Source: a virus. Taken from it: a DNA stretch of 64,000 nucleotides. A program made the translations under genes and the position numbers. The notes under the pieces are model-generated. The model had not been told where the DNA came from and made no database searches. It saw nothing but the letters and a program-made list of their open reading frames with translations. The stretch lies in the UHGV virus genome UHGV-1359874; one strand, 5' to 3'. Shown here piece by piece: positions 2,127 to 60,906 of the stretch. Numbering within the stretch: position 1 is the stretch's first letter; every line of letters begins with the position of its first letter.

Positions 2127-3332
2127 TTGGAGAGAAAAAATACAATGCAATTAACAACTAAACAAGAGTTAGGATTAAAGCTCGCGGTGTCTCGATATAA
2201 ACATGGAGAAAAATTCACTGTTATCAGTGGATATGCTGGTTCTGGCAAGAGCACTCTAGTTAAGTTTATCATTGATGCTATTGGACTTCCACATGATGAT
2301 ATTTGTTACGCCGCATATACTGGTAAAGCAAGTGAAGTACTCCGAAAAAAGGGTAATCCAAATGCAATGACACTTCATAAATTATTGTATGATAGTAGAC
2401 CTTTACCTAATGGCGGTTTTATTAGAACAAAGAAAATTAAAATTGAATATAAACTTGTTGTGGTTGATGAATGTTCAATGGTTCCTCAAGAGATGGTTGA
2501 ACAGCTCGCAGGCTACTATGGAGTCTATGTAATTTACCTTGGAGATCCTGGGCAAATTCCGCCTATCGACCCAAGTACCGCGAATCATCTTCTGGCTAAT
2601 CCACACGTTTTCTTGGATGAAATTATGCGGCAGGCGCAAGAAAGTGAAATTATTAGACTTTCTATGAAAATTCGTAATGGTGAAGATTTTAGTTTATTTG
2701 ATGGTAAAGATGCAAAAGTAATCACTTATGATGATTTGAATACTGGTATGCTCACTTGGGCGGATATTATTCTTAGTGCGACCAATAGAACAAGACACGA
2801 GATTAATATGCAGATGCGGGAACTCACTGGACATCTTGAAGGTAAACCAGTCGATGGTGATAAAGTAATCTGTACCCGTAACTATTGGGAAGAGCTTGGC
2901 TCAGATGAAAATCCGCTTATTAATGGTAGTATTGGATATTTGAAGGATACTTATGCAAGTTATATTAAGTATCCTAGACGTGTTAAGCGGACTTGGTTGA
3001 ATATCAATAAAAATCCTGTTGAAACACTTTGCGGCAGCTTCATCAGTGAAACTGGTGAGATCTATGAGAATAAGCAGCTCGATCTTGAAATGTTTTCAAC
3101 TGGCAAACCGCAGCTAGATTCAAAGTCAGAATTTATTCTGCATAGGACTAAGTTTAGTACACCTCTTCAGTTTGAGTATGGCTACTGCGTGACTGGTCAC
3201 AAGGCGCAGGGTAGTGAGTGGGATAAGGTACTGATACTGGAAGAAAGATTTCCATTTGACAAGGAAGAACATCAACGTTGGCTCTATACAGCTTGTACTC
3301 GTGCTTCTTCTCGACTCGTTCTAGTTCGATAA
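2127..3332 (+). CDS. SF1 DNA helicase, Dda/RecD-like
   Basis: Walker A 'GYAGSGKST', Walker B 'VVVDECSM', and C-terminal motifs 'TGHKAQGSEW' and 'YTACTRA', typical of RecD/Dda-family helicases. Confidence 0.75.
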   Translation: MERKNTMQLTTKQELGLKLAVSRYKHGEKFTVISGYAGSGKSTLVKFIIDAIGLPHDDICYAAYTGKASEVLRKKGNPNAMTLHKLLYDSRPLPNGGFIRTKKIKIEYKLVVVDECSMVPQEMVEQLAGYYGVYVIYLGDPGQIPPIDPSTANHLLANPHVFLDEIMRQAQESEIIRLSMKIRNGEDFSLFDGKDAKVITYDDLNTGMLTWADIILSATNRTRHEINMQMRELTGHLEGKPVDGDKVICTRNYWEELGSDENPLINGSIGYLKDTYASYIKYPRRVKRTWLNINKNPVETLCGSFISETGEIYENKQLDLEMFSTGKPQLDSKSEFILHRTKFSTPLQFEYGYCVTGHKAQGSEWDKVLILEERFPFDKEEHQRWLYTACTRASSRLVLVR

Positions 3333-3406
3333 TAATTGGACATTTTTATTTAATGCTCTTGTTATTATTTTTAAATACTATAACAAGAGCAAAGGAGAAG
3401 ATACGT

Positions 3407-4375
3407 ATGTCAGAAATAGATAACTATAAACAAATTCCAGTAGGAAGAGGAAAAGATTATTCTAATCAAAGAATAGGAGATTTTTTGATCTTTTTCCGAA
3501 CTGAACCACCAAAAGATAAAAACCCGAATAATGCTTATTGGCTTTGTCAATGTCAAAAATGTAAAAAATATGAAATCATTCAAGCTCCAAGAATAAGTAA
3601 AGGTATTATGAAATGTTCTTGTAGAAATGATTTAACTGGAAAAACTTTTGGAAGATGGACAGTACAATATTTATGTGAACAAAAAACAAAAAAGAGAGGG
3701 AATCTTTGGCATTGTAAATGTTTATGCGGAAATGAAAAAGACGTTCCTGCTGAAACCCTTGCACGAGGAGAGAGCCAGAGTTGTGGCTGTCTTCATAGAG
3801 AATCTGTTATAAAAATGTGCCATTCAAATAGAATTAATTTAACAGGGCAACGTTTTGGGAAACTAATTGCTTTATATCCGATTTATAGTAAAGAAAAAAA
3901 TACTCATACTAAATGGCATTGCAAATGTGACTGTGGGAATGAGTGTGATATAGATATGGGCAATCTTCGTAGTGGAAAAAGTCAGTCTTGTGGATGCACT
4001 AATTCTAAGCAAGAAGAAAAAATAATTAAATTACTTATTGAAAACAATATTTCTTTTAATTATCAAGATAATAATTTTTTAGATAAAAGTAAAAAATTTG
4101 ATTTTTATATAAAAGAAAATTTAAATGAATATATTATTGAATTTGATGGTCAACAACATTTCTTTTATACTGGAACTGGATGGGACACAAAAGAACACTA
4201 TGAAAGAACTCATAAAAACGATTTGATTAAAAATAAATATTGCTTTGATAATAGTATCCCATTAATTCGTATTCCATATGATGCAGAATATACAATAGAT
4301 GATTTAAGACTTGAAACAACAAGGTTTCTTTTAACACCTGAGAATGAAGAAGAATATTATTCCAAGAGGATGTAA
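3407..4375 (+). CDS. free-standing homing-endonuclease-like protein: tandem Cys-rich modules plus a C-terminal Vsr/DUF559-like (PD-(D/E)XK) nuclease domain
   Basis: Two repeats of 'LTGxxFGxLxV...WxCKCxCGNE...SGxSQSCGC'. C-terminus 'FDFYI...IEFDGQQHF...IPLIRIPY' resembles DUF559/Vsr endonuclease cores. The true start is probably the ATG at 3407 (RBS aaggagaag), not the 3278 start in the ORF track. It is a paralog of 14573..15574. Confidence 0.6.
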   Translation: MSEIDNYKQIPVGRGKDYSNQRIGDFLIFFRTEPPKDKNPNNAYWLCQCQKCKKYEIIQAPRISKGIMKCSCRNDLTGKTFGRWTVQYLCEQKTKKRGNLWHCKCLCGNEKDVPAETLARGESQSCGCLHRESVIKMCHSNRINLTGQRFGKLIALYPIYSKEKNTHTKWHCKCDCGNECDIDMGNLRSGKSQSCGCTNSKQEEKIIKLLIENNISFNYQDNNFLDKSKKFDFYIKENLNEYIIEFDGQQHFFYTGTGWDTKEHYERTHKNDLIKNKYCFDNSIPLIRIPYDAEYTIDDLRLETTRFLLTPENEEEYYSKRM

Positions 4376-4377
4376 AT

Positions 4378-4875
4378 ATGAAACTAGCTCTAAGCTATTT
4401 CTACCAAATCCGCAACTTTAAGCCGTACATGATTCCAGTCTCTACGGCGTTCGGAGATCCAGCCTGGTTCCATGCAGGTCTAGGTAAAACTTACAATTAC
4501 TTAGATAAAAGAGGAGTAGTAAATGGACTCCGTTGTGAAGAATTACATGGAGATAATTCATGTAATAGTGAAGTTGAAGTTACTTGTCCATGTGAATATC
4601 ATAAAGTTGGGTATCCAGGCGGGTGCCCAGCTATGGCAGAGTATCGCCAACACCTTGAAGAATTAGACCTAGATTCTTTTATAAATCGAGCTAATACTGC
4701 CGCAAATGATATTAAAACCCACCTAAGATTTAAAGAAGAACCAATAATTGTATTGATGGTTCATGAAGCACCAGATAATCCATGTAGTGAACGTCAATCA
4801 TTATTAGATTATTTTAATTCTCATAACATACCTCTTGAAGAATTAAAATATCCAATAAGTGAAAATTATATCTAA
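4378..4875 (+). CDS. hypothetical protein (165 aa); start codon lies 3 nt after the upstream endonuclease stop
   Basis: ORF only. The Cys/His pattern 'CPCEYHK...GGCP' may bind metal. No confident family assignment. Confidence 0.4.
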   Translation: MKLALSYFYQIRNFKPYMIPVSTAFGDPAWFHAGLGKTYNYLDKRGVVNGLRCEELHGDNSCNSEVEVTCPCEYHKVGYPGGCPAMAEYRQHLEELDLDSFINRANTAANDIKTHLRFKEEPIIVLMVHEAPDNPCSERQSLLDYFNSHNIPLEELKYPISENYI

Positions 4876-9308: not shown

Positions 9309-11120
9309 ATGCAGAATATTATTAAGAGAGATGGCACAACTCAGCCATTTAATAAATTTAAAATTGTAGATGCGGTATTAGCCGCATTCAAGGCTGTAGA
9401 TGGAGACATTTCAGAATATGCTGAAGTTAAGGCGGGTAATATCGCTGATTTCATTGAAGAAAAGGCCGAAAAGAAACAGCTTACTATTGAAGAAATTCAG
9501 GATTATGTCGAACGTGGTCTTTCCAGCACTAAACGGAAGGATGTAGCTAAAGCATTCATTCTTTATAGAGAAAAGCGTAATCAAGCAAGAGGAAATGTAA
9601 TTGATGATGCAGTTATGGAATTGCTTGATGGTACGAATGAATATTGGAAAACTGAAAATTCTAATAAAGATGCGGATGTTGTAACTGTCCAACGTGATTA
9701 TCTAGCTGGTATTATTAGTACAGATATTAGCCGTCGCAAGATTCTTACATCCGACATTTGTGAAGCACATGATGCTGGTATTATTCATGAACATGACATG
9801 GACTATCTCGCACAAAATGCTCTTTCAAACTGTTGTCTTATTAATGCAGAAGATATGTTGCAGAATGGCACTGTTATTAATGGTATCCGCATTGACCCTC
9901 AACATCGTTTATCTACAGCTACTACTGTATTGACCCAGATTATCACTGCAGTAGCCAGCTCACAGTACGGTGGTTGTACCATTTCTCTGACTCATCTAGC
10001 TCCCTATGTGCGAATGAGTTATAAAGATTATATTAGAAAATATATTGATTGGGGATTCGATACTGAGAAGGCAAAAGAATTCGCTAAGAAGGATTTAGCC
10101 AAGGAAATTCGTGATTCGGTTCAAACTTTTAATTATCAGATTAATTCTATGAGCACAACTAACGGTCAGGCCCCTTTCCTCTCCGTTTGTATGTATCTAG
10201 GTGAAACGGATGAATATAAACCAGAACTAGCTATGCTTATCGAAGAATTCCTTCGTCAACGTATTCTTGGTATGAAGAATGAAAAGGGAGTATATATTAC
10301 ACCCGCTTTTCCGAAATTACTTTATGTACTTGAAGAAGACAATATTCATGCGGATAGCAAGTATTTTTACTTAACAGAACTTGCCGCAGAATGTACAGCA
10401 AAACGTCTTGTTCCTGATTATATTTCAGAAAAAGTTATGAAGCAAAACAAGATTAATCCTACTACTGGCAAAGGTGAAGCTTATCCATGTATGGGATGTA
10501 GATCTTTCTTAACTCCAGACCGCACCACTAAGAATTATGCCCGCGCATTAAATTATAAAGAGGGTCAGGGGAAATATTATGGTCGCTTTAATATGGGTGT
10601 TACTACAATTAATCTTCCTGATATTGCATTTTCTTCAAAAGGTGATTTTGAACTGTTTTGGAAACTTTTTGATGAGCGTACTGAACTTTGTCATAAAGGT
10701 TTAAAAGTTCGTATCAAGAGACTTGAAAATGTAACTTCTGATGTCGCACCTATTCTTTGGCAGGATGGAGCATTTGCTAGACTTAATAAACATGAATCTA
10801 TTAAAGAACTGCTTCATCATGGATATGCAACTGCTTCTCTTGGTTATGCTGGACTTTATGAATGCGTAAAGTATATGACTGGTCATTCTCATTCAGATGG
10901 CGGCGTAGGCGAACTCTTTGGCTTAGAGGTAATGCAAGCACTTAATGATAAATGTAATGAATGGAAACGGCAAGAAGATATTGATTATTCTCTTTACGGC
11001 TCTCCTATCGAGTCAACTACTTACAAATTTGCTAAATGTTTAAAGAAGCGATTTGGTGATGATATTTTTATTAAACTTGACGGTTTTGATAGAAATTATA
11101 TAACTAATAGCTACCATTAA
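9309..11120 (+). CDS. nrdD: anaerobic ribonucleoside-triphosphate reductase NrdD, exon 1 (ATP-cone plus catalytic barrel; C-terminal glycyl-radical domain missing)
   Basis: N-terminal ATP-cone 'IIKRDGTTQPFNKFKI'. Length and composition fit class III RNR. The ORF stops before the Zn-ribbon and glycyl-radical region, which is found 1.1 kb downstream. Confidence 0.8.
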   Translation: MQNIIKRDGTTQPFNKFKIVDAVLAAFKAVDGDISEYAEVKAGNIADFIEEKAEKKQLTIEEIQDYVERGLSSTKRKDVAKAFILYREKRNQARGNVIDDAVMELLDGTNEYWKTENSNKDADVVTVQRDYLAGIISTDISRRKILTSDICEAHDAGIIHEHDMDYLAQNALSNCCLINAEDMLQNGTVINGIRIDPQHRLSTATTVLTQIITAVASSQYGGCTISLTHLAPYVRMSYKDYIRKYIDWGFDTEKAKEFAKKDLAKEIRDSVQTFNYQINSMSTTNGQAPFLSVCMYLGETDEYKPELAMLIEEFLRQRILGMKNEKGVYITPAFPKLLYVLEEDNIHADSKYFYLTELAAECTAKRLVPDYISEKVMKQNKINPTTGKGEAYPCMGCRSFLTPDRTTKNYARALNYKEGQGKYYGRFNMGVTTINLPDIAFSSKGDFELFWKLFDERTELCHKGLKVRIKRLENVTSDVAPILWQDGAFARLNKHESIKELLHHGYATASLGYAGLYECVKYMTGHSHSDGGVGELFGLEVMQALNDKCNEWKRQEDIDYSLYGSPIESTTYKFAKCLKKRFGDDIFIKLDGFDRNYITNSYH

Positions 11121-12235
11121 TTGGATAGTGGCTTAATATAGTGATATATTAAGAAAACCTTGTGAACTCTTTTAGAGGTGTCAGATTAAAAATCTGGCTA
11201 ACGGTTCAGAAGTAAGAAATTACAATATGAGTAAGGGAACCTAAGTCTTTAATAAAATAAAGATATGGTAATACCGTGCTAAGTTTGTTTTGTTCAATAA
11301 TAAAAAAATAAAGAAAGGAGGAAAAAAATGGGTAGACCGCCTAAATATATCATTAATATTGGAAATATTTATGATGATTATAAATGTATAGACATCATTC
11401 AAGAAACAACTGGTCAAAAAAGAAAAAAATATATTATGAAATGTCAAAAATGCGAAAAAGTAAAATCTATGTTAGGTTCAACAGTTGGATTGCATAAAGG
11501 AACAAAACATAAAAGCTGTGGAAAAGGATTAGGAATTACTTATGATGAATATTTTTATAAACGTTGGAAATCAATGAGAGCTAGAACTTCTCCAAATTTT
11601 TGGAATAGAGAAAATTATTATGATAGAGGTATTAACAGTGATGCTTTTGAAAGTTTCATAGATTTCTATAACGCAATGTATGAATCATGGAAAGCTCATG
11701 TAGCCATCTATGGAGAGCATGATACTTCTTTAGAACGTATAGATGTTGACAAGCCTTATACACCAGAAAATTGTTGTTGGATATGTCTTGATGAACAAAG
11801 AGGAAATTTACAAAAGACAAATTATTTTACAGTTGAAAATATTGAAACTGGAGAAATAGAGTATTGTAAAAATGCTTTACAATATACTTATGACCATCCA
11901 GAAATTCCTCATAGATACATATATGATTTATTGAAGTATAACAGAACTTATAAAGGTAAAAAATTTACTAAAATAACTAAGCAAGATTTTGAAAAATATA
12001 AAAAATCTCTAATTATTGAACAAACTTAAAAGTGTAACGACTATCGAAAGCCCATTATAGAAGAAAAATCTATAACTGGAAGTGAGTAGAGTAGTTCATT
12101 ATTGAACGAAGTGCAAGGATTCTATAATTCGGTAACAGAATAATAGAATATGAGATAGTCTATTCCCTCTTAAATATCAAGAAATTGAGGGTATAAAAGA
12201 TTCCTGTTTTTGAGAAAATTGATGCGTTCTCTAAG
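11121..12235 (+). mobile_element. putative group I intron interrupting nrdD, carrying an HNH homing-endonuclease ORF (boundaries approximate)
   Basis: A 1.1-kb non-coding and ORF-containing gap lies between two NrdD fragments. An R/P7-like element 'GTAACGACTATCG' sits at ~12034, just after the HEG stop. This is analogous to the T4 nrdD (sunY) intron. Confidence 0.65.
11328..12029 (+). CDS. intron-encoded HNH homing endonuclease
   Basis: HNH_3-type motif 'LERIDVDKPYTPENCCWICLDEQRGN'. Strong RBS aaaggagg. Located inside the nrdD gap. Confidence 0.7.
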   Translation: MGRPPKYIINIGNIYDDYKCIDIIQETTGQKRKKYIMKCQKCEKVKSMLGSTVGLHKGTKHKSCGKGLGITYDEYFYKRWKSMRARTSPNFWNRENYYDRGINSDAFESFIDFYNAMYESWKAHVAIYGEHDTSLERIDVDKPYTPENCCWICLDEQRGNLQKTNYFTVENIETGEIEYCKNALQYTYDHPEIPHRYIYDLLKYNRTYKGKKFTKITKQDFEKYKKSLIIEQT

Positions 12236-12586
12236 TTGGCTATTGAAGCTAAATTCCAGACCCTTTCTCCAGGGGGCGCAATTAGTTACATTGAGACGCC
12301 AAATATGCAGGGAAATATTCCAGCAGTATTATCTGTAATTCAGTTCATTTACGACAATATTATGTATGCTGAATTAAATACCAAGAGTGATTATTGCCAA
12401 GAGTGCGGTTATGATGGAGAAATCCTCATTGATGAGAATATGGAATGGTATTGTCCTAATTGTGGCAATCGTGACCATTCAACTCTTAATGTTGCACGAC
12501 GCACCTGCGGCTACATAGGGTCTAACTTCTGGAATTATGGCCGCACCCAAGAGATAAAAGATAGAGTGGTACATCTTGATGACTAA
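12197..12586 (+). CDS. nrdD: NrdD exon 2 (Zn-ribbon plus glycyl-radical domain); the 5' boundary lies somewhere in 12197..12240
   Basis: 'CQECGY...CPNCGN' Zn-ribbon and 'RRTCGYIGSNFWN' glycyl-radical motif (RxCGY). The ORF-track start is a TTG, consistent with no independent start. Confidence 0.8.
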   Translation, partial: KIPVFEKIDAFSKLAIEAKFQTLSPGGAISYIETPNMQGNIPAVLSVIQFIYDNIMYAELNTKSDYCQECGYDGEILIDENMEWYCPNCGNRDHSTLNVARRTCGYIGSNFWNYGRTQEIKDRVVHLDD

Positions 12587-14158: not shown

Positions 14159-14395
14159 ATGTTTATTAAAATTAAGTATTTTGATGAATCAATGCCTAAA
14201 CTTGAATTTATCGAAGGTAAGAAATCTGATTGGATTGATTTGCGGGCAGCTGAGGAACTCTTTATTCCTGCTAATACTTTTGCAATGATTCATCTGGGAG
14301 TAGCCATGAAGCTACCTGAAGGTTATGAAGCTCATATTGCACCTCGTTCCTCAACTTTCAAGAAATGGGGAATCATTCAGGTTAACTCTGTCGGT
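14159..14395 (+). CDS. dut: dUTPase exon 1 (motifs I-II and the start of motif III)
   Basis: 'WIDLRAAEE' (motif I-like), 'IAPRSSTFKKWGI' (motif II), ends '...QVNSVG' in the middle of motif III (G|VIDxDY). Confidence 0.75.
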
Positions 14396-15764
14396 AAATA
14401 AAAATTCCTAAAAAAGTTTGGTCGAAGTTCTTTCACCGGCGTAAGATAAAATTCATATAATAATGAAAAATAAAAGAAAAAGGAGTTTTGTCTTATAGCT
14501 ACTAAAACTATTAATTTTGGAACGGATGAATTTTTTATTTCTAAATATAAAGAATTAAAAAGTTCAAGAAAAATGGGAGAATTTTTTGACTGTAATAAAA
14601 CTTCTGTTTTAAATCATTGTAAAAAAATTGGATTTGATCCAAAAAGTCTTCAATCTCCTAAGTTAACAGAAAAACAAAAACAAGAAATTATTTCTTTATA
14701 TGAAGAAAAAACAGCTTCAGAATTAGCTAAAGTATATAATGTTTCAGATAGTTTAATCTCAAAAGTTTGGATGGAGGCTGGCAAAAGAGGAAAAAAACGA
14801 GTAGGTTGGTGCCATGATTTAACAGGACAAACTTTTGGCTATTTAACTGTTATTGAAAAAACAGATAAAAGAGGTCCAAGTGGCGGAGTTATTTGGAAAT
14901 GCTCTTGTAATTGTGGATTACCTTCTTGTTTAAAAGAAAAAGATATTCTTGGAGCTACTTTATTAGAAGGAAAAACGATTTCTTGCGGAGCAGTAGGAAA
15001 AAAGAATTTAGAAAAAGGAAGAGAAGTAAAAAATTTAATTGGTCAAAAATTTGGTCATTTAACAGTGATAAAAAGAGCTGAAAATAAAATTTTCCCTTCT
15101 GGATATTCTGCTTCTCAATGGTTATGTAAATGTGACTGCGGCAATGAAACAATTATTCTTGGAAGCAACTTAATTTCAGGGAATAGCCAATCTTGCATTT
15201 ATTGCAAAAAATCTCATGGAGAAAATAAAATTGAAGAACTTTTAAAAGAAAATAAACTTTCTTTTACTAGAGAACAAAGATTTGATACTTGTAAAAATAT
15301 TAGACCTTTACCTTTTGACTTTTATGTAAATAATCAATATTTAATAGAATTTGATGGTAAGCAGCATTTTGAAGCAACAGGTGAAAGATTTAATGAAGAA
15401 GTTGTACAAGATATTCAAAAAAGAGATAGCATAAAGAATGAATGGTGTAAAAAAAATAATATTCCACTAATTCGTATTCCTTATTCTCATTATAATGATT
15501 TAAAAATTGAAGATTTATTACTTGAAACTACAACTTTCTTAGTCAATAATGCCGACATAAAATCGCGGAATTAAGCGGGAAAGCTGAGATGCTAATCCGA
15601 ACCGAAGGCTAGGTTCAGCCTAGTCAGGGGCAACGCATAGGGAGTGAAAAGATATAATCTCCCCACGAGGCCGCGATACTTAAAAAGTAAAAAGATATGC
15701 TGAACTTATACAAATAAGAAGTATAAGAATTATAGGATAAAAAGCCTATAAGATAACATAAATG
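14396..15764 (+). mobile_element. putative group I intron in dut carrying a DUF559/Vsr-like homing-endonuclease ORF
   Basis: A 1.37-kb insert splits dUTPase motif III. The 5' splice site follows a U (ggt|) and the insert ends in G (..aatg|gtt). The 3' part (15575-15700) is a GC-rich structured segment containing 'GCGGGAAAGC' (P-element-like) and 'GGTTCAGCCTAGTCAGG'. Confidence 0.6.
14573..15574 (+). CDS. intron-encoded homing-endonuclease-like protein (Cys-rich tandem modules plus Vsr/DUF559-like nuclease); paralog of 3407..4375
   Basis: Repeats 'LTGQTFGYLTVI...WKCSCNCG' and 'LIGQKFGHLTVI...WLCKCDCGNE...SGNSQSC'. C-terminus 'PFDFYV...IEFDGKQHF...IPLIRIPY'. Confidence 0.6.
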   Translation: MGEFFDCNKTSVLNHCKKIGFDPKSLQSPKLTEKQKQEIISLYEEKTASELAKVYNVSDSLISKVWMEAGKRGKKRVGWCHDLTGQTFGYLTVIEKTDKRGPSGGVIWKCSCNCGLPSCLKEKDILGATLLEGKTISCGAVGKKNLEKGREVKNLIGQKFGHLTVIKRAENKIFPSGYSASQWLCKCDCGNETIILGSNLISGNSQSCIYCKKSHGENKIEELLKENKLSFTREQRFDTCKNIRPLPFDFYVNNQYLIEFDGKQHFEATGERFNEEVVQDIQKRDSIKNEWCKKNNIPLIRIPYSHYNDLKIEDLLLETTTFLVNNADIKSRN

Positions 15765-15962
15765 GTTATTGATGAGTCCTATGCGGGAGATGGGGACGAG
15801 TGGATGATGCCTGTATATGCAATCCGTGACACCAATATCCACAAGGGTGATCGCGTATGTCAGTTCCGTATCATGGAAAAGCAGCCCGCTGTACAGTTTG
15901 TTGAAGTTAAGCATCTTGAAGATGAAAATCGCGGTGGATTTGGTTCTACTGGCTCTAACTAA
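15765..15962 (+). CDS. dut: dUTPase exon 2 (motifs III-V)
   Basis: '[13 protein letters not shown]' (motif III continuation), 'KGDRVCQF' (motif IV), '[10 protein letters not shown]' (motif V). Confidence 0.75.
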
Positions 15963-58099: not shown

Positions 58100-58991
58100 C
58101 TTTTATTCTTGTACTGTTTCGCTAACAGTTTCTTCAACTTTCATTGAAGGTGAGACTATATCTTCAGTATATCTCCATATATAACCTTTAAAAGTTTTTA
58201 GTTTACCTCGACAGCACTCTCCGATATGAGTTCCCTTTGAAGCTCCTATGGCTCTAGCCGCCGCGTTGGTAGAAGGATAAGTCATAATATATTTTCCATT
58301 TAAATCATATTGATTAACTTCTTTAGCCTTACCATTATTTGTATAATTCTTGGTTTCACCTAAAACAGTTTCTCTAGACCAATAAAAATTTCCTTTTAAA
58401 CTTTTTATATTTGTAAATAATTCTTGTTTAATAGTAGACTCGCTAATTCCAACAGCTTTTGCCGCTTCTGAAATTGTTCTGTATTCAGCAATTAATTTTT
58501 TATCTTTGTTAAAACAATATACATGAGGAAATTTCTTCAATTCATACTTCATTGAATGATGAACATTTTCCAGAGAAGTACACCATTCTAAATTATCTAC
58601 ATAGTTATTAGTTTTATCTCCATCAATATGATTTACTTGATTTCTCTTTGGATTATCATTTGGAATATAAGCTAAAGCAACCATACGATGAGCATAAACT
58701 CTTTTTTTAGAGCCATCTGGTAAAGTAATATTGTAACTTAAATAACCATTTTTGTAATTGTACTGGCCTTTTAAATATTTGTCAGTTTTACTATTATAAC
58801 ATTTTCCATCTTCAGTTATATAATACCAGGTACTGATATTATCAACAATAATTTGTCTCATAATAACAACCTTTCTTTTTTTCATACTGTGCTGTACTGG
58901 CTTCGCTTGAAGCCGTTAGTCGTTGAACCTTCTTCACTAGAATAATGAAGCTCGGCTGCTGATTGCCCAATCTAGTTAATTTTTAAAACAT
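58100..58991 (-). mobile_element. putative group I intron no. 2 in terL with an HNH HEG (boundaries approximate)
   Basis: The gap between TerL ATPase and nuclease fragments contains an R/P7-like core 'GGTTCAACGACTAACGG' (minus strand, plus-strand coordinates 58907-58924) and the HNH ORF. Confidence 0.6.
58103..58885 (-). CDS. intron-encoded HNH homing endonuclease (HNH plus C-terminal HTH)
   Basis: 'YAHRMVALAYIPNDNPKRNQVNHIDGDKTNNYVDNLEWCTSLEN' HNH_3 motif. 'ISEAAKAVGISESTI' NUMOD1-like HTH. Confidence 0.7.
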   Translation of the reverse strand: MKKRKVVIMRQIIVDNISTWYYITEDGKCYNSKTDKYLKGQYNYKNGYLSYNITLPDGSKKRVYAHRMVALAYIPNDNPKRNQVNHIDGDKTNNYVDNLEWCTSLENVHHSMKYELKKFPHVYCFNKDKKLIAEYRTISEAAKAVGISESTIKQELFTNIKSLKGNFYWSRETVLGETKNYTNNGKAKEVNQYDLNGKYIMTYPSTNAAARAIGASKGTHIGECCRGKLKTFKGYIWRYTEDIVSPSMKVEETVSETVQE

Positions 58992-59735
58992 TCATATTTT
59001 GCAATATTGTAGTTTAACTAGCTCTAAGGGGTTTCCAGCAATTCTCAGCAATTTAAAGAGTACATATCCTTTATACTCTCTGGCGAATGAGTCCTCTGCA
59101 TAAGTTCCCTGGAGTTTCAGAGTATCAACAAAATCTTCATCCAACAAACCTTCTATTACAGGTGTTTCATAAGTGCCACCAATAATCATAACCTCATTCG
59201 GTTCAATAATAGACTGAATCAAAAGCTCAATTAATTTAGAGTAGGCAAAAGAATTCTTCCAGCCTGCTGTAGTGATATATATCTGACTTTTGTTTACTGT
59301 CTCTTTGGGGTCACGCGTACCATCAGGAAGCAATCGGTTAACGTTTGTAGTAGGAATAACGATTTCATTCAACGCGGTTTGATCAATAAGAACGCACTCT
59401 TCCATTAGACCACCAACTCGGCGCTGACCACGAGAAGATTCACGAGCCGCGAGAATGTCAATAGAAGAACCATTTTTAAAAAGATATTTAACACTATCTT
59501 TTGATTTTGTTGATTTGCCCTTTTCCCAGTTTATTTCATTGTTCAATGCGGGGATAAGTCGGCATATCTCCTCGATCTTCGCGATCGTGATGCTAGCTGC
59601 TTGTTCTTTTCCGCCCGTCGTTACGAACAAGTTCGCACCCGGATAGAGAATACAACGAAGCATTAATACCATCATAGATAGGAATGATTTTGAATCTTTA
59701 TATTCTATTAAGTTCGCAAAACTTAATACGTTTTT
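58992..59735 (-). CDS. terL: large terminase, exon 2 (ATPase domain, post-Walker A); the 5' boundary lies within 59676..59735
   Basis: In-frame upstream extension gives 'KDSKSFLSMMVLMLRCILYPGANLFVTTGGKEQAASI', which is collinear with T4 gp17 '[29 protein letters not shown]'. Confidence 0.6.
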   Translation of the reverse strand, partial: KNVLSFANLIEYKDSKSFLSMMVLMLRCILYPGANLFVTTGGKEQAASITIAKIEEICRLIPALNNEINWEKGKSTKSKDSVKYLFKNGSSIDILAARESSRGQRRVGGLMEECVLIDQTALNEIVIPTTNVNRLLPDGTRDPKETVNKSQIYITTAGWKNSFAYSKLIELLIQSIIEPNEVMIIGGTYETPVIEGLLDEDFVDTLKLQGTYAEDSFAREYKGYVLFKLLRIAGNPLELVKLQYCKI

Positions 59736-60906
59736 TAAAAACTGCTTATAATTTCTTATAAGAATAGACTATTTCACATTTTACTTTTTAGTAAAACCTC
59801 TCCATTTCGATTTAAGGGGTTTTCACCCACCTCATAAGCTTAGGCCCTACTCCTATTGTTTCTATTATACCCCGGAAACTAAAGGATAGTCGTTGAAGTT
59901 TATTATTCTTTGTACCTAAAATGGAATCCTCCATGAGATTTATTAATTCCTCTGCAAACTTTAGAGATAGTACTTCCGTCTAAATGAAGTTCTCTTGCTG
60001 CTTCTGCACAAGAAGGAAAACTTCTAATGAATTTATCATCTAAAGTTAGCTGTTCAACTTCTTTACAAGAAGAATTAACTTTTTGAACATAATAGGCTTG
60101 TTTTACATTTTCTGAACACGTTAATAATCTTAAATTATCTAATCTATTATTTAATTTATTAGTGTCTTTATGGTCAATAATATGTCCTTCCGGAATCTCA
60201 TCTAAATCATTAAAAACACAATAAATTAATCTATGCACTAACATATCTTTTACTTGACCATTTTTACTTAGTCTAACTTTATAATATCCATTCGTTAAAC
60301 TTGGTTTTAACAATCTGAAAGTTTCATCATTTCTAATTCTTCCTTTTGAAGAAACAGAATAATGATATTTTGGAATTTTCTTCCATATCTCATTATCTAA
60401 ATTTTCTTTAAAAAATTCAGATTTTTGTCGTTCTTTAATTAAATTATTTTGATGTGCATGAGAAATATTTTCAGAATAAGTCACCCATTCAAGATTACTA
60501 ACTTCATTATTTAATTTATTCCCATCCTTATGATTTACCACAGGTAAATTATTTGGATTAGTAATAAAATATTCAGCTACTAGCCTATGAGCATAAAACA
60601 TTTTTTTATTACCATCTTTTGATAATCTATAATATTTATAACCATTTTCACCAATACTACCTTTTAAAACTTTATTAGTAGTTTTATTTAAAACATCACC
60701 ATTATCATAAATAAAATATTGTTCATACTCTTTAATTCTTTTTCTCATTTCTAGAACTCCTTTATTTAAGAATAATCTTACCTGCAGATTCCCTTGTCCA
60801 AGAAAACCTTCCTTAAGGTCTTTCACATATTTTTGGATTTAGAGTTCCTGCAATTAAAAGAGTTTGTCCAGAAAATTATATTAATTTTCGTTGGCGCATT
60901 TTCATA
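59736..60906 (-). mobile_element. putative group I intron no. 1 in terL with a double-HNH HEG (boundaries approximate)
   Basis: Splits terL at the Walker A P-loop. R/P7-like core 'CTTCAACGACTATCC' (minus strand, plus-strand coordinates 59878-59895) lies just after the HEG stop. Confidence 0.6.
59903..60826 (-). CDS. intron-encoded HNH homing endonuclease (two HNH modules plus a C-terminal HTH)
   Basis: 'YAHRLVAEYF...VVNHKDGNKLNNEVSNLEWVTYSEN' and 'LVHRLIYCVF...IDHKDTNKLNNRLDNLRLLTCSEN'. C-terminus 'AARELHLDGSTISKVCRG'. Confidence 0.7.
   Translation of the reverse strand: MKDLKEGFLGQGNLQVRLFLNKGVLEMRKRIKEYEQYFIYDNGDVLNKTTNKVLKGSIGENGYKYYRLSKDGNKKMFYAHRLVAEYFITNPNNLPVVNHKDGNKLNNEVSNLEWVTYSENISHAHQNNLIKERQKSEFFKENLDNEIWKKIPKYHYSVSSKGRIRNDETFRLLKPSLTNGYYKVRLSKNGQVKDMLVHRLIYCVFNDLDEIPEGHIIDHKDTNKLNNRLDNLRLLTCSENVKQAYYVQKVNSSCKEVEQLTLDDKFIRSFPSCAEAARELHLDGSTISKVCRGINKSHGGFHFRYKE

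Follow-up and report, generated by a model that had tools for sequence, protein, structure and literature searches.

Does a short sequence that recurs in the inserts of two interrupted phage genes trace one element that has multiplied within a genome, or is it a part that such elements have in common wherever they occur? The question is raised by a 64,000-nt stretch of the UHGV virus genome UHGV-1359874 (the whole stretch analysed, hereafter the window), which represents a low-GC (~33%) tailed gut phage with an SPbeta/Schiekvirus-like terminase and also encodes a DnaE-type polymerase, a RecJ-like nuclease, and NrdD/NrdG. A first-pass annotation had flagged a decamer in three inserts, two in the terminase gene terL and one in the ribonucleotide reductase (RNR) gene nrdD, had read it as the R element of group I introns, and had proposed that one family of introns had reached several essential genes of this genome. 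We retain the assignment to R and depart from the proposed spread. With a probability of roughly 0.9, the motif is the R element (J6/7 and the P7 5′ strand) of phage IA-like group I introns, the three introns were acquired separately at their own target sites, and the decamer that they share is due to catalytic constraint and not to a recent common origin in this genome.

The flagged motif and its context

Within the window, the decamer TCAACGACTA has two exact copies, at 58917-58926(-) and 59887-59896(-), both of them in terL inserts; dinucleotide shuffles give a mean of 0.06 copies, and none of 100 shuffles reached two. The third site, GTAACGACTATCG at 12034-12046(+) in nrdD, had been positioned correctly, but it carries two mismatches to the decamer and retains only the 8-mer AACGACTA, the sole stretch common to all three sites. 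Both terL coordinates had been 3-6 nt off: GGTTCAACGACTAACGG lies at 58913-58929 (previously 58907-58924) and CTTCAACGACTATCC at 59884-59898 (previously 59878-59895).

Counted alone, the 8-mer is not enriched (three copies against 1.22 expected, a number that 11 of 100 shuffles also give), which favors viewing the recurrence as a chance or compositional coincidence without structural meaning. The sites are non-random because of their context (inserts, coding strand, downstream ATAGTCT), not because of this count. The heptamer ACGACTA has just three copies in the window, each on the coding strand of a gene-interrupting insert, as first described, and ATAGTCT follows every one of them, at +122 nt in terL intron 1, +765 nt in terL intron 2, and +119 nt in nrdD. 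The composite pattern AACGACTA-N100-130-ATAGTCT has two matches in the window against 0.01 expected. Together with the excess of the exact decamer, and with all copies at an equal structural position aligned to R of the covariance model RF00028, this has already refuted coincidence, to which we assign next to no probability. The motif is indeed confined to the three inserts; the fourth intron of the window, in the dUTPase gene dut, has the R element CAACGCATA.

Group I introns in terL and nrdD

The terL gene lies on the minus strand in three pieces, namely exon 1 (61161-60906), exon 2 with the ATPase core (59695-59073), and exon 3 with the nuclease domain (58099-57242), the last placed by alignment of the spliced protein. 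Exon 1 ends with ...CGUGCGU within the Tyr86 codon and joins exon 2 directly in L007, the terL locus of the closest relative described below, and exon 2 ends with ...AGAGUAU. The predicted ligated junctions are CGUGCGU/AUUCAAAA (exons 1-2) and GAGAGUAU/AUGUCCAG (exons 2-3). The spliced TerL of 578 aa aligns end to end, and gap-free at both junctions, with the uninterrupted protein of MT836163.1 (faecal virome, 74% identity), and is also colinear and gap-free with the TerL of Enterococcus phage H1. Intron 1 (59696-60905(-), 1210 nt) holds an open reading frame (ORF) in its P6 loop, and intron 2 (58100-59072(-), 973 nt) holds one in its P8 loop; an ORF position in P7.2 was rejected for P8 on the basis of the homologue in Enterococcus phage EF1.

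The nrdD gene is divided on the plus strand into exon 1 (9309-11117; Pfam NRDD, 3.3e-128), which ends with ...NSYH (CAU), and exon 2 (12200-12586), which contains the glycyl-radical domain and was placed by spliced-protein alignment. The intron between them (11118-12199(+), 1082 nt) also holds its ORF in the P6 loop. The spliced product ...NSYH|IPVFEK... is colinear with T4 NrdD (1h78) and another solved NrdD, 9d3x, and the predicted ligated junction reads UACCAU/AUUCCUGU. An alternative 5′ splice site, AGCU|, was rejected, as it would delete the conserved NSxH motif. Removal of each insert restores a TerL or NrdD colinear with uninterrupted homologues.

No close relative of the window was found in INPHARED, where a near-identity search with the terL region gave only a 60-nt endonuclease fragment. 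The closest relative is the IMG/VR contig IMGVR_UViG_3300045988_126685 (loci L007 for terL and L084 for nrdD) at 96-98% DNA identity, and it lacks exactly 60905-59696, 59072-58100, and 11118-12199. With these precise absences, the boundaries deduced from the proteins are those of natural insertion/deletion alleles, and the view of the inserts as true introns, two in terL and one in nrdD, is upheld. Inteins were rejected, for the inserts hold stop codons in the host frame and ORFs out of frame.

All three inserts contain the parts of a group I core, that is the P3/P7 pseudoknot, P4-P6, P8, the P, Q, R, and S elements, a bulged P7 nucleotide, and the G-C pair. The R element of intron 2 (the flagged feature) is GGUUCAACGACUAACGG at 58913-58929(-), with its P7 5′ strand at 58917-58923 and an alignment to RF00028 positions 136-148. 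The R element of intron 1 is CUUCAACGACUAUCC at 59884-59898(-), with the P7 5′ strand GACUAU at 59886-59891, and the nrdD intron has the variant GUAACGACUAUCG at 12034-12046(+), with GACUAU at 12039-12044. The motif aligns with the RF00028 consensus GUUCAaAGACUA, and each R element pairs with a downstream S element at the distances given above. The P7 3′ strand is AUAGUC at 59767-59772(-) in intron 1 according to the RF00028 alignment, UAGUCU at 58153-58158(-) inside the endonuclease ORF in intron 2, where GAAGAUAUAGUCU is aligned to the P7 3′ strand of the model, and AUAGUC at 12155-12160(+) in the nrdD intron. In each case P7 consists of A, a bulged C, and then G-A-C-U-A paired with U-A-G-U-C-U, including the G-C pair that forms the guanosine-binding site of group I ribozymes (PMC3984707). 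The 5′ splice site of every intron is preceded by a U that pairs with a G of the P1 guide as a U.G wobble (GCGU|AU-GAAA-AUGCGC in intron 1, AGAGUAU/GUACUCU in intron 2, and CCAU|UA...UAGUGG in nrdD), and every intron ends with a G, at 59696, 58100, and 12199, respectively.

Extra helices P7.1/P7.2 between the P7 5′ strand and P3′ are the mark of subgroup IA, a definition that reportedly goes back to Michel and Westhof in 1990. Both helices are listed among the class criteria (PMC3984707). The interval between P7 and P3′ holds two covarying hairpins in intron 1 (seen as an RF00028 insert in its orthologue L068) and in the nrdD intron, and a single hairpin, GGCUUC-AAGC-GAAGCC, in intron 2. The proposed subgroup IA fits these P7.1/P7.2-type hairpins.

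Orthologues at the same or nearly the same sites show that the helices of the core covary. For terL, relatives in IMG/VR were mapped exon by exon, and most of them are intron-less. Inserts at the codon of intron 1 were found in L041/L042 (264 nt), L068 (287 nt), and L051-53/L064 (1202 nt), and the ORF-less copies at this site pass RF00028 with 90.4 and 90.2 bits (the latter for L068). Once its ORF is taken out, intron 1 shows 76-77% identity to both L068 and the ORF-containing L051, with which it has the distinctive P7.1/P7.2 insert in common, and P3 has changed in a compensatory manner from CUCUUU/GGAGAG in intron 1 to CUUCUU/GGGAAG in L068. The aa-86 site of terL hosts two distinct intron lineages, the L041 type and the L068/intron 1 type. 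For intron 2, the nearest external relative is the terL intron of Enterococcus phage EF1 (66% identity), an annotated phage intron with an HNH endonuclease that is inserted 2 nt upstream (GAGU|AU vs GAGUAU|). The two introns have in common a large P5 extension and an ORF in the P8 loop, and they differ by compensating changes in P3 (UGCUG/CAGCA in intron 2 vs AUGCAAU/AUUGCAU), in P8 (CAGUAU/AUACUG in intron 2 vs AAAUAUAU/AUAUAUUU), and also in P6, P7.1, and P9.

For nrdD, a pattern search for its R...S arrangement in IMG/VR retrieved introns at the same NrdD position in L168, L171, L185, L189, and L191, among which L185 is naturally ORF-less. The structure was tested with a hand-built model of 102 pairs on an unrefined MAFFT alignment of six sequences (A2), comprising P1, P2, P3, two extra hairpins, P4, two P5-region hairpins, P6, P7, P7.1, P7.2, P8, and P9. 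In this model 83.8% of cells are paired, compared with 40-45% when the partners are slid by 1-3 columns, and 40 pairs are doubly changed, compared with 6-18 in the slid controls; none of 500 shuffles reached these values. P3, which is CCUUGUG/UGCAAGG in the window and is followed there by the two extra hairpins before P4, is 100% paired across the family with compensatory changes in four of seven pairs (CCUUG/CAAGG, CCUCG/CGAGG, CCAUG/CAUGG, CCCAG/CUGGG, and CUUUGG/CCGAAG), and P7.1, P7.2, and P8 are likewise rich in such changes. Earlier guesses for P3 (CUGGC/GCC, CUUUU/GAAAG, and UGAAC/GUUCA) were dropped once the orthologues showed CCUUG/CAAGG covarying. The compact relative L178, whose 3′ half closely matches the nrdD intron (74% identity overall), scores 90.1 bits with RF00028, and the alignment puts P3 and P4 where the hand-built model has them. 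Two alternatives for P4, GGUGU/AUACC and ACGGU/ACCGU, are both invariant, and the RF00028-aligned L178 favors ACGGU/ACCGU. The P7 register itself covaries in related introns, as GACCAU/AUGGUC in yonO of phage phi3T and as GCAUA/UAUGC in the dut type. Single-sequence minimum-free-energy folding of the ORF-deleted introns recovered P7 of nrdD and was unreliable for P3-P6.

The covariance-model search suggested at the outset gave sub-threshold matches in both terL introns and none in nrdD. Run in E-value mode on sub-regions, RF00028 returned split matches in the terL introns (E-values of 2e-6, 8e-5, and 2.6e-4) that span P3-P7 and P8-P9 of the model and place R and S on its P7 strands. In intron 1 only the 3′ core is matched (59745-59892, 28.8 and 26.2 bits), and in intron 2 the two halves flank the ORF (58884-59108, 35.6 bits, E 2e-6; 58134-58319, 30.4 bits). 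The window introns stay below the threshold because of endonuclease ORFs of ~0.8 kb in P6 or P8 and, for nrdD, also because of an additional module between P3 and P4; as noted above, L068 (an ORF-less orthologue) and L178 (a compact relative) both pass RF00028. Published work describes a heterogeneous 'IA2' subgroup, as well as RF00028 matches that are partial or confined to one side of an endonuclease loop (PMC11878797).

The ORFs of the terL introns encode predicted homing endonucleases of the HNH (I-HmuI-like) type, as judged from the combination of HNH_3 and NUMOD domains. The intron 1 gene (59903-60748(-), 281 aa) is preceded by the ribosome-binding site AAGGAG 8 nt upstream of the ATG at 60748, and its product matches Pfam HNH_3 in two stretches (2.6e-22), NUMOD4, NUMOD1, and phrog_59 (8.5e-81), giving two tandem HNH_3 modules with an I-HmuI-like domain. 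Residues ~11-105 and 130-245 of this protein each match the single module of the intron 2 enzyme, and both modules retain the H...N...N motif, with the NUMOD DNA-binding domains coming after. The intron 2 gene (58103-58885(-), 260 aa from the first ATG) encodes HNH_3 (1e-9) and two NUMOD1 domains (5.7e-18); its first AUG (58885) lies in the 5′ strand of P8, and a second at 58861 has a better ribosome-binding site. The nrdD intron gene (11328-12029(+), 233 aa) matches phrog_374 'HNH endonuclease' (1.3e-15), and its product has no Pfam domain, only PHROG 'HNH endonuclease' families giving matches.

These features suggest how the introns may work. Each would fold into a group I core in which the 5′ splice site is displayed by P1 as a U.G wobble and P7 (A, bulged C, GACUA / UAGUC-U) provides the guanosine-binding pocket. 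An exogenous G would attack the 5′ splice site, the terminal G of the intron would next replace it, and the exons would be ligated, yielding intact TerL and NrdD. The site-specific endonuclease encoded in the intron, looped out of P6 or P8, would cut intron-less alleles of co-infecting relatives, and the repair would copy the intron in (homing). Splicing activity, endonuclease activity, and homing are all predicted here from the sequence.

Several observations weigh against this reading. No RF00028 match is found in the whole window at the gathering threshold (50 bits), and for the nrdD intron nothing is reported even when 1.1 kb is searched at E<=10. The nrdD-family alignment shows no variation in P4 or P7, which therefore give no covariation signal there; for P7 this holds by construction, because the search pattern required it. 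The last ~25 codons of the intron 2 ORF traverse P7′, P9, and P9.1 (58103-58180), with the stop 3 nt before the 3′ splice site, and this overlap might compromise one of the two functions; in EF1, the ORF is ended by UAA immediately before AGAUAUAGUC. At the intron 2 site, no excess divergence from the closest relative is seen.

The inserts could instead be non-functional, either as decayed intron relics or as free-standing endonuclease genes whose insertion divided terL and nrdD into fragments that are translated separately and still assemble. The split nrdA of phage Aeh1 is a precedent, intron-less split yet functional RNR genes are documented (PMC3653736), every window copy is sub-threshold or unreported with RF00028, and the exon pieces are sizeable ORFs, with terL exon 3 beginning with ATG. 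However, the helices have accumulated many compensatory changes across orthologues, and the U.G pair, the terminal G, and the G-binding pair of P7 are intact in all three introns. The stop codons of terL exon 1 and nrdD exon 1 come only after out-of-frame or intron sequence, terL exon 2 has neither its own start nor a ribosome-binding site at the junction, and the ORF-less versions at the same sites (L068 and L185) cannot be endonuclease insertions. We therefore regard loss of function as very improbable, and functional group I introns as the reading to be followed below.

Relationships among the three introns and their mobility

The recurrence of the decamer had led to the proposal of one family within this genome, duplicated into terL twice and into nrdD by ectopic homing or reverse splicing, with the decamer as a trace of recent common origin. 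Some similarities agree with this. The decamer is identical in both terL introns, and intron 1 resembles the nrdD intron in its S block (86% identity over 22 nt), in its ORF within P6, in the UAUUC that comes after S, and in a 3′ splice site of the form AUAAAG|AUUC. The terL endonucleases are both HNH_3/NUMOD proteins with one module in common (46% identity over 100 aa), corresponding to 65% DNA identity over 203 nt, the longest blastn match among the introns, which falls within their HNH ORFs. In this lineage a core also seems to have passed from one gene to another, as described below for dut.

The ribozymes themselves do not bear the proposal out. The ORF-less cores are 57-65% identical in global pairwise alignments, the level of shuffled controls (mean 56-59%, maximum 66%), and closer relatives exist at the same sites elsewhere: 79-85% identity for the nrdD intron and its same-site orthologues, and 76-77% for intron 1; for intron 2 the figure is only 66% (EF1, 2 nt from its site). 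Among the three full introns, the blastn matches in the ribozyme parts are limited to the universally conserved R and S blocks, with 11 nt of R between introns 1 and 2 and 22 nt of S between intron 1 and nrdD. The sequence TTCAACGACTA also occurs in introns at no fewer than five other terL positions and at other nrdD positions of other phages, including Enterococcus phage EF1 and many phages of IMG/VR; its presence in so many unrelated phage introns makes it a core element of the whole class. In the nrdD intron, R is the variant UGUAACGACUA, typical of a different lineage, and this intron also has a two-hairpin module between P3 and P4 and an endonuclease of another family, for which blastp against the two terL endonucleases gave no significant match. 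The closest relative lacks all three introns.

The three introns thus do not group as nearest kin, and their ribozymes are no more alike than the universal core requires. External blastn matches are found in Staphylococcus Kayvirus/Sepunavirus and Bacillus AR9/PBS1 introns for the core of intron 1, in Streptococcus, Staphylococcus, Bacillus, and Serratia phage introns for intron 2, and in Carnobacterium, Enterococcus, Twort, phi3T, and phage G for the 3′ end of the nrdD intron. The present data point toward the window introns nesting among same-site introns of other phages, and we consider duplication of one family in this genome to be improbable, scarcely better placed than loss of function. 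Separate acquisition carries a methodological warning, in that a perfectly conserved core element of 10-12 nt indicates class membership and not recent intragenomic spread.

Comparison with the closest relative also bears on mobility. In the 100 nt 3′ of the nrdD site (12200-12300) the mismatch density is 12-16% against a background of ~4%, and over the same length 3′ of intron 1 (59595-59695) it is 10% against 1-2%, which is consistent with co-conversion during homing. The divergent region 3′ of intron 1 also flanks the relative's own terL insert. The terL gene of this clade is an intron hot spot, with at least seven insertion positions and up to four inserts in one gene (L051-53 and L064); among relatives L004-L083 the inserts lie at ~aa 86, 100-118, 200, 236, 240, 293-295, 350, and 521. 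For nrdD, the NSYH|IPV site of the window intron is absent from the 80 closest nrdD relatives. Other relatives (L109, L111, L117, L140, L156, and L163) carry inserts at query residues 278/280 of the C-terminal fragment, beside the RRTCGY glycyl-radical motif, and L168 and L171 have an additional nrdD insert near aa 395-397.

Known systems, the P3-P4 module, and the dut intron

It is textbook knowledge that phage terminase and RNR genes can carry group I introns with homing endonucleases. Polymerases, RNRs, and terminases are typical phage intron targets (PMC3984707), nrdD is the phage RNR gene most often split (PMC3653736), and two or three introns in one terL gene have been described (PMC11878797). 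The closest parallels are phage IA2-like introns with HNH endonucleases, such as the SPO1/SP82 DNA polymerase intron (I-HmuI), those of Twort terminase and nrdE, Bastillevirinae terL/pol, and EF1 terL. The window introns resemble them in their insertion into conserved motifs of essential genes (terminase and RNR), in an R element UUCAACGACUA and S element AGAUAUAGUCU that form P7, in P7.1/P7.2-type hairpins between P7 and P3′, and in an I-HmuI-like endonuclease of the HNH_3/NUMOD kind encoded in the loop of P6 or P8. The presence of more than one intron in terL has a counterpart as well (PMC11878797), the terL of Twort being annotated as joined from 3 pieces, and the P5 extension of intron 2 has a homologue in the EF1 terL intron, which is inserted 2 nt away. 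On the other hand, the window represents a new host phage lineage whose TerL is only 44% identical to Enterococcus phage TerL, its insertion positions are not identical to those of EF1, the ORF of intron 2 extends across P7′, P9, and P9.1, and the intron 1 endonuclease has two tandem HNH modules.

The intron endonucleases of T4 are of the GIY-YIG (I-TevI and I-TevII) or HNH (I-TevIII) type. As described, the T4 introns in td, nrdB, and nrdD (sunY) are, like those of the window, phage IA-type introns in nucleotide-metabolism genes that are mobile by means of an endonuclease (PMC2988022, PMC3653736). The nrdD intron of the window differs from that description in its P3-P4 module and its phrog_374-type endonuclease, and its blastn matches lie in Firmicutes phages, not in T4.

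The P3-P4 module is the only element that might be new. At 11163-11209 of the window, a conserved two-hairpin arrangement, GUGAAC-hairpin-GGUGU-hairpin-GCUAACGG, lies between P3 and P4 and replaces the usual J3/4, which has 3 nt in canonical introns. It sets the nrdD intron and its orthologues apart from L178, and its carriers are L164, L168, L171, L185, L186, L189, L191, and the phi3T yonO intron (L194 ~1290-1370). Its pattern has at least 120 matches in IMG/VR, one of which is in yonO of Bacillus phage phi3T, and among the matches listed, 57 of the 67 with a recognizable downstream R have UGUAACGACUA. Even when ORF-less, introns with the module escaped RF00028 or stayed below its threshold: it found no match in L185, phi3T yonO, and L186, and gave 36.6 bits for L164. 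Tentatively, and with the odds rather against it, the nrdD intron may therefore belong to an abundant structural class of phage group I introns that escapes RF00028 and is marked by the P3-P4 module and the R variant. A literature search for such a module (P3.1/P3.2, between P3 and P4) found nothing relevant, which is no proof of novelty. If undescribed, the module would add a peripheral domain, or a subgroup, to those of the group I ribozymes. In either case, surveys based on RF00028 would undercount the many phage introns with this insertion.

The fourth interrupted gene, dut (14159-15962(+)), had been missed in the first-pass annotation because its P7 differs. It consists of exon 1 (14159-14395), an intron (14396-15764), and exon 2 (15765-15962), and the spliced product ...NSVG|VIDESY... 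is colinear with B. subtilis YncF (2xcd, E 2e-58), with the predicted ligated junction GUCGGU/GUUAUUGA. A U.G pair is again present in P1 (UCGGU|...GUCGA), and the intron ends with a G at 15764. Its P7 combines CAACGCAUA as R element (15631-15639(+)) with UAUGCU as S element (15696-15701(+)), and this helix keeps the register of ACGACUA/UAGUCU, from which it differs by two compensatory pairs. The intron ORF (14573-15574(+), 333 aa) matches homing-endonuclease PHROGs 559, 374, 9084, and 7140. For annotation, these results mean that terL and nrdD (both essential) and dut are rescued from being called as fragments, with exact splice junctions given.

Like the other three, the dut intron is absent from the 96-98% identical closest relative. 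Its 3′ core (15565-15764) is 88-91% identical to the 963-nt terL insert of that relative (L007, 3086-4048, at TTGG|KEQAA), which encodes a LAGLIDADG protein and not the 333-aa dut ORF. From this likeness, one core lineage occurs in different genes with different endonucleases, and it looks like recent ectopic movement or module swapping. The phage lineage is a natural system of very fast intron turnover, in which a relative lacking all four introns has instead a related ribozyme at another terL site with a different endonuclease. Related cores were also seen in terL of L051, L055, L057, and L061. Finally, a 365-aa ORF at 3278-4375(+), flanked by a RecD-like helicase gene (2127-3332) and an ORF at 4378-4875, matches the same homing-endonuclease PHROGs (374, 559, 9084, and 7140) as the dut-intron ORF, and it is probably a free-standing homing endonuclease gene.

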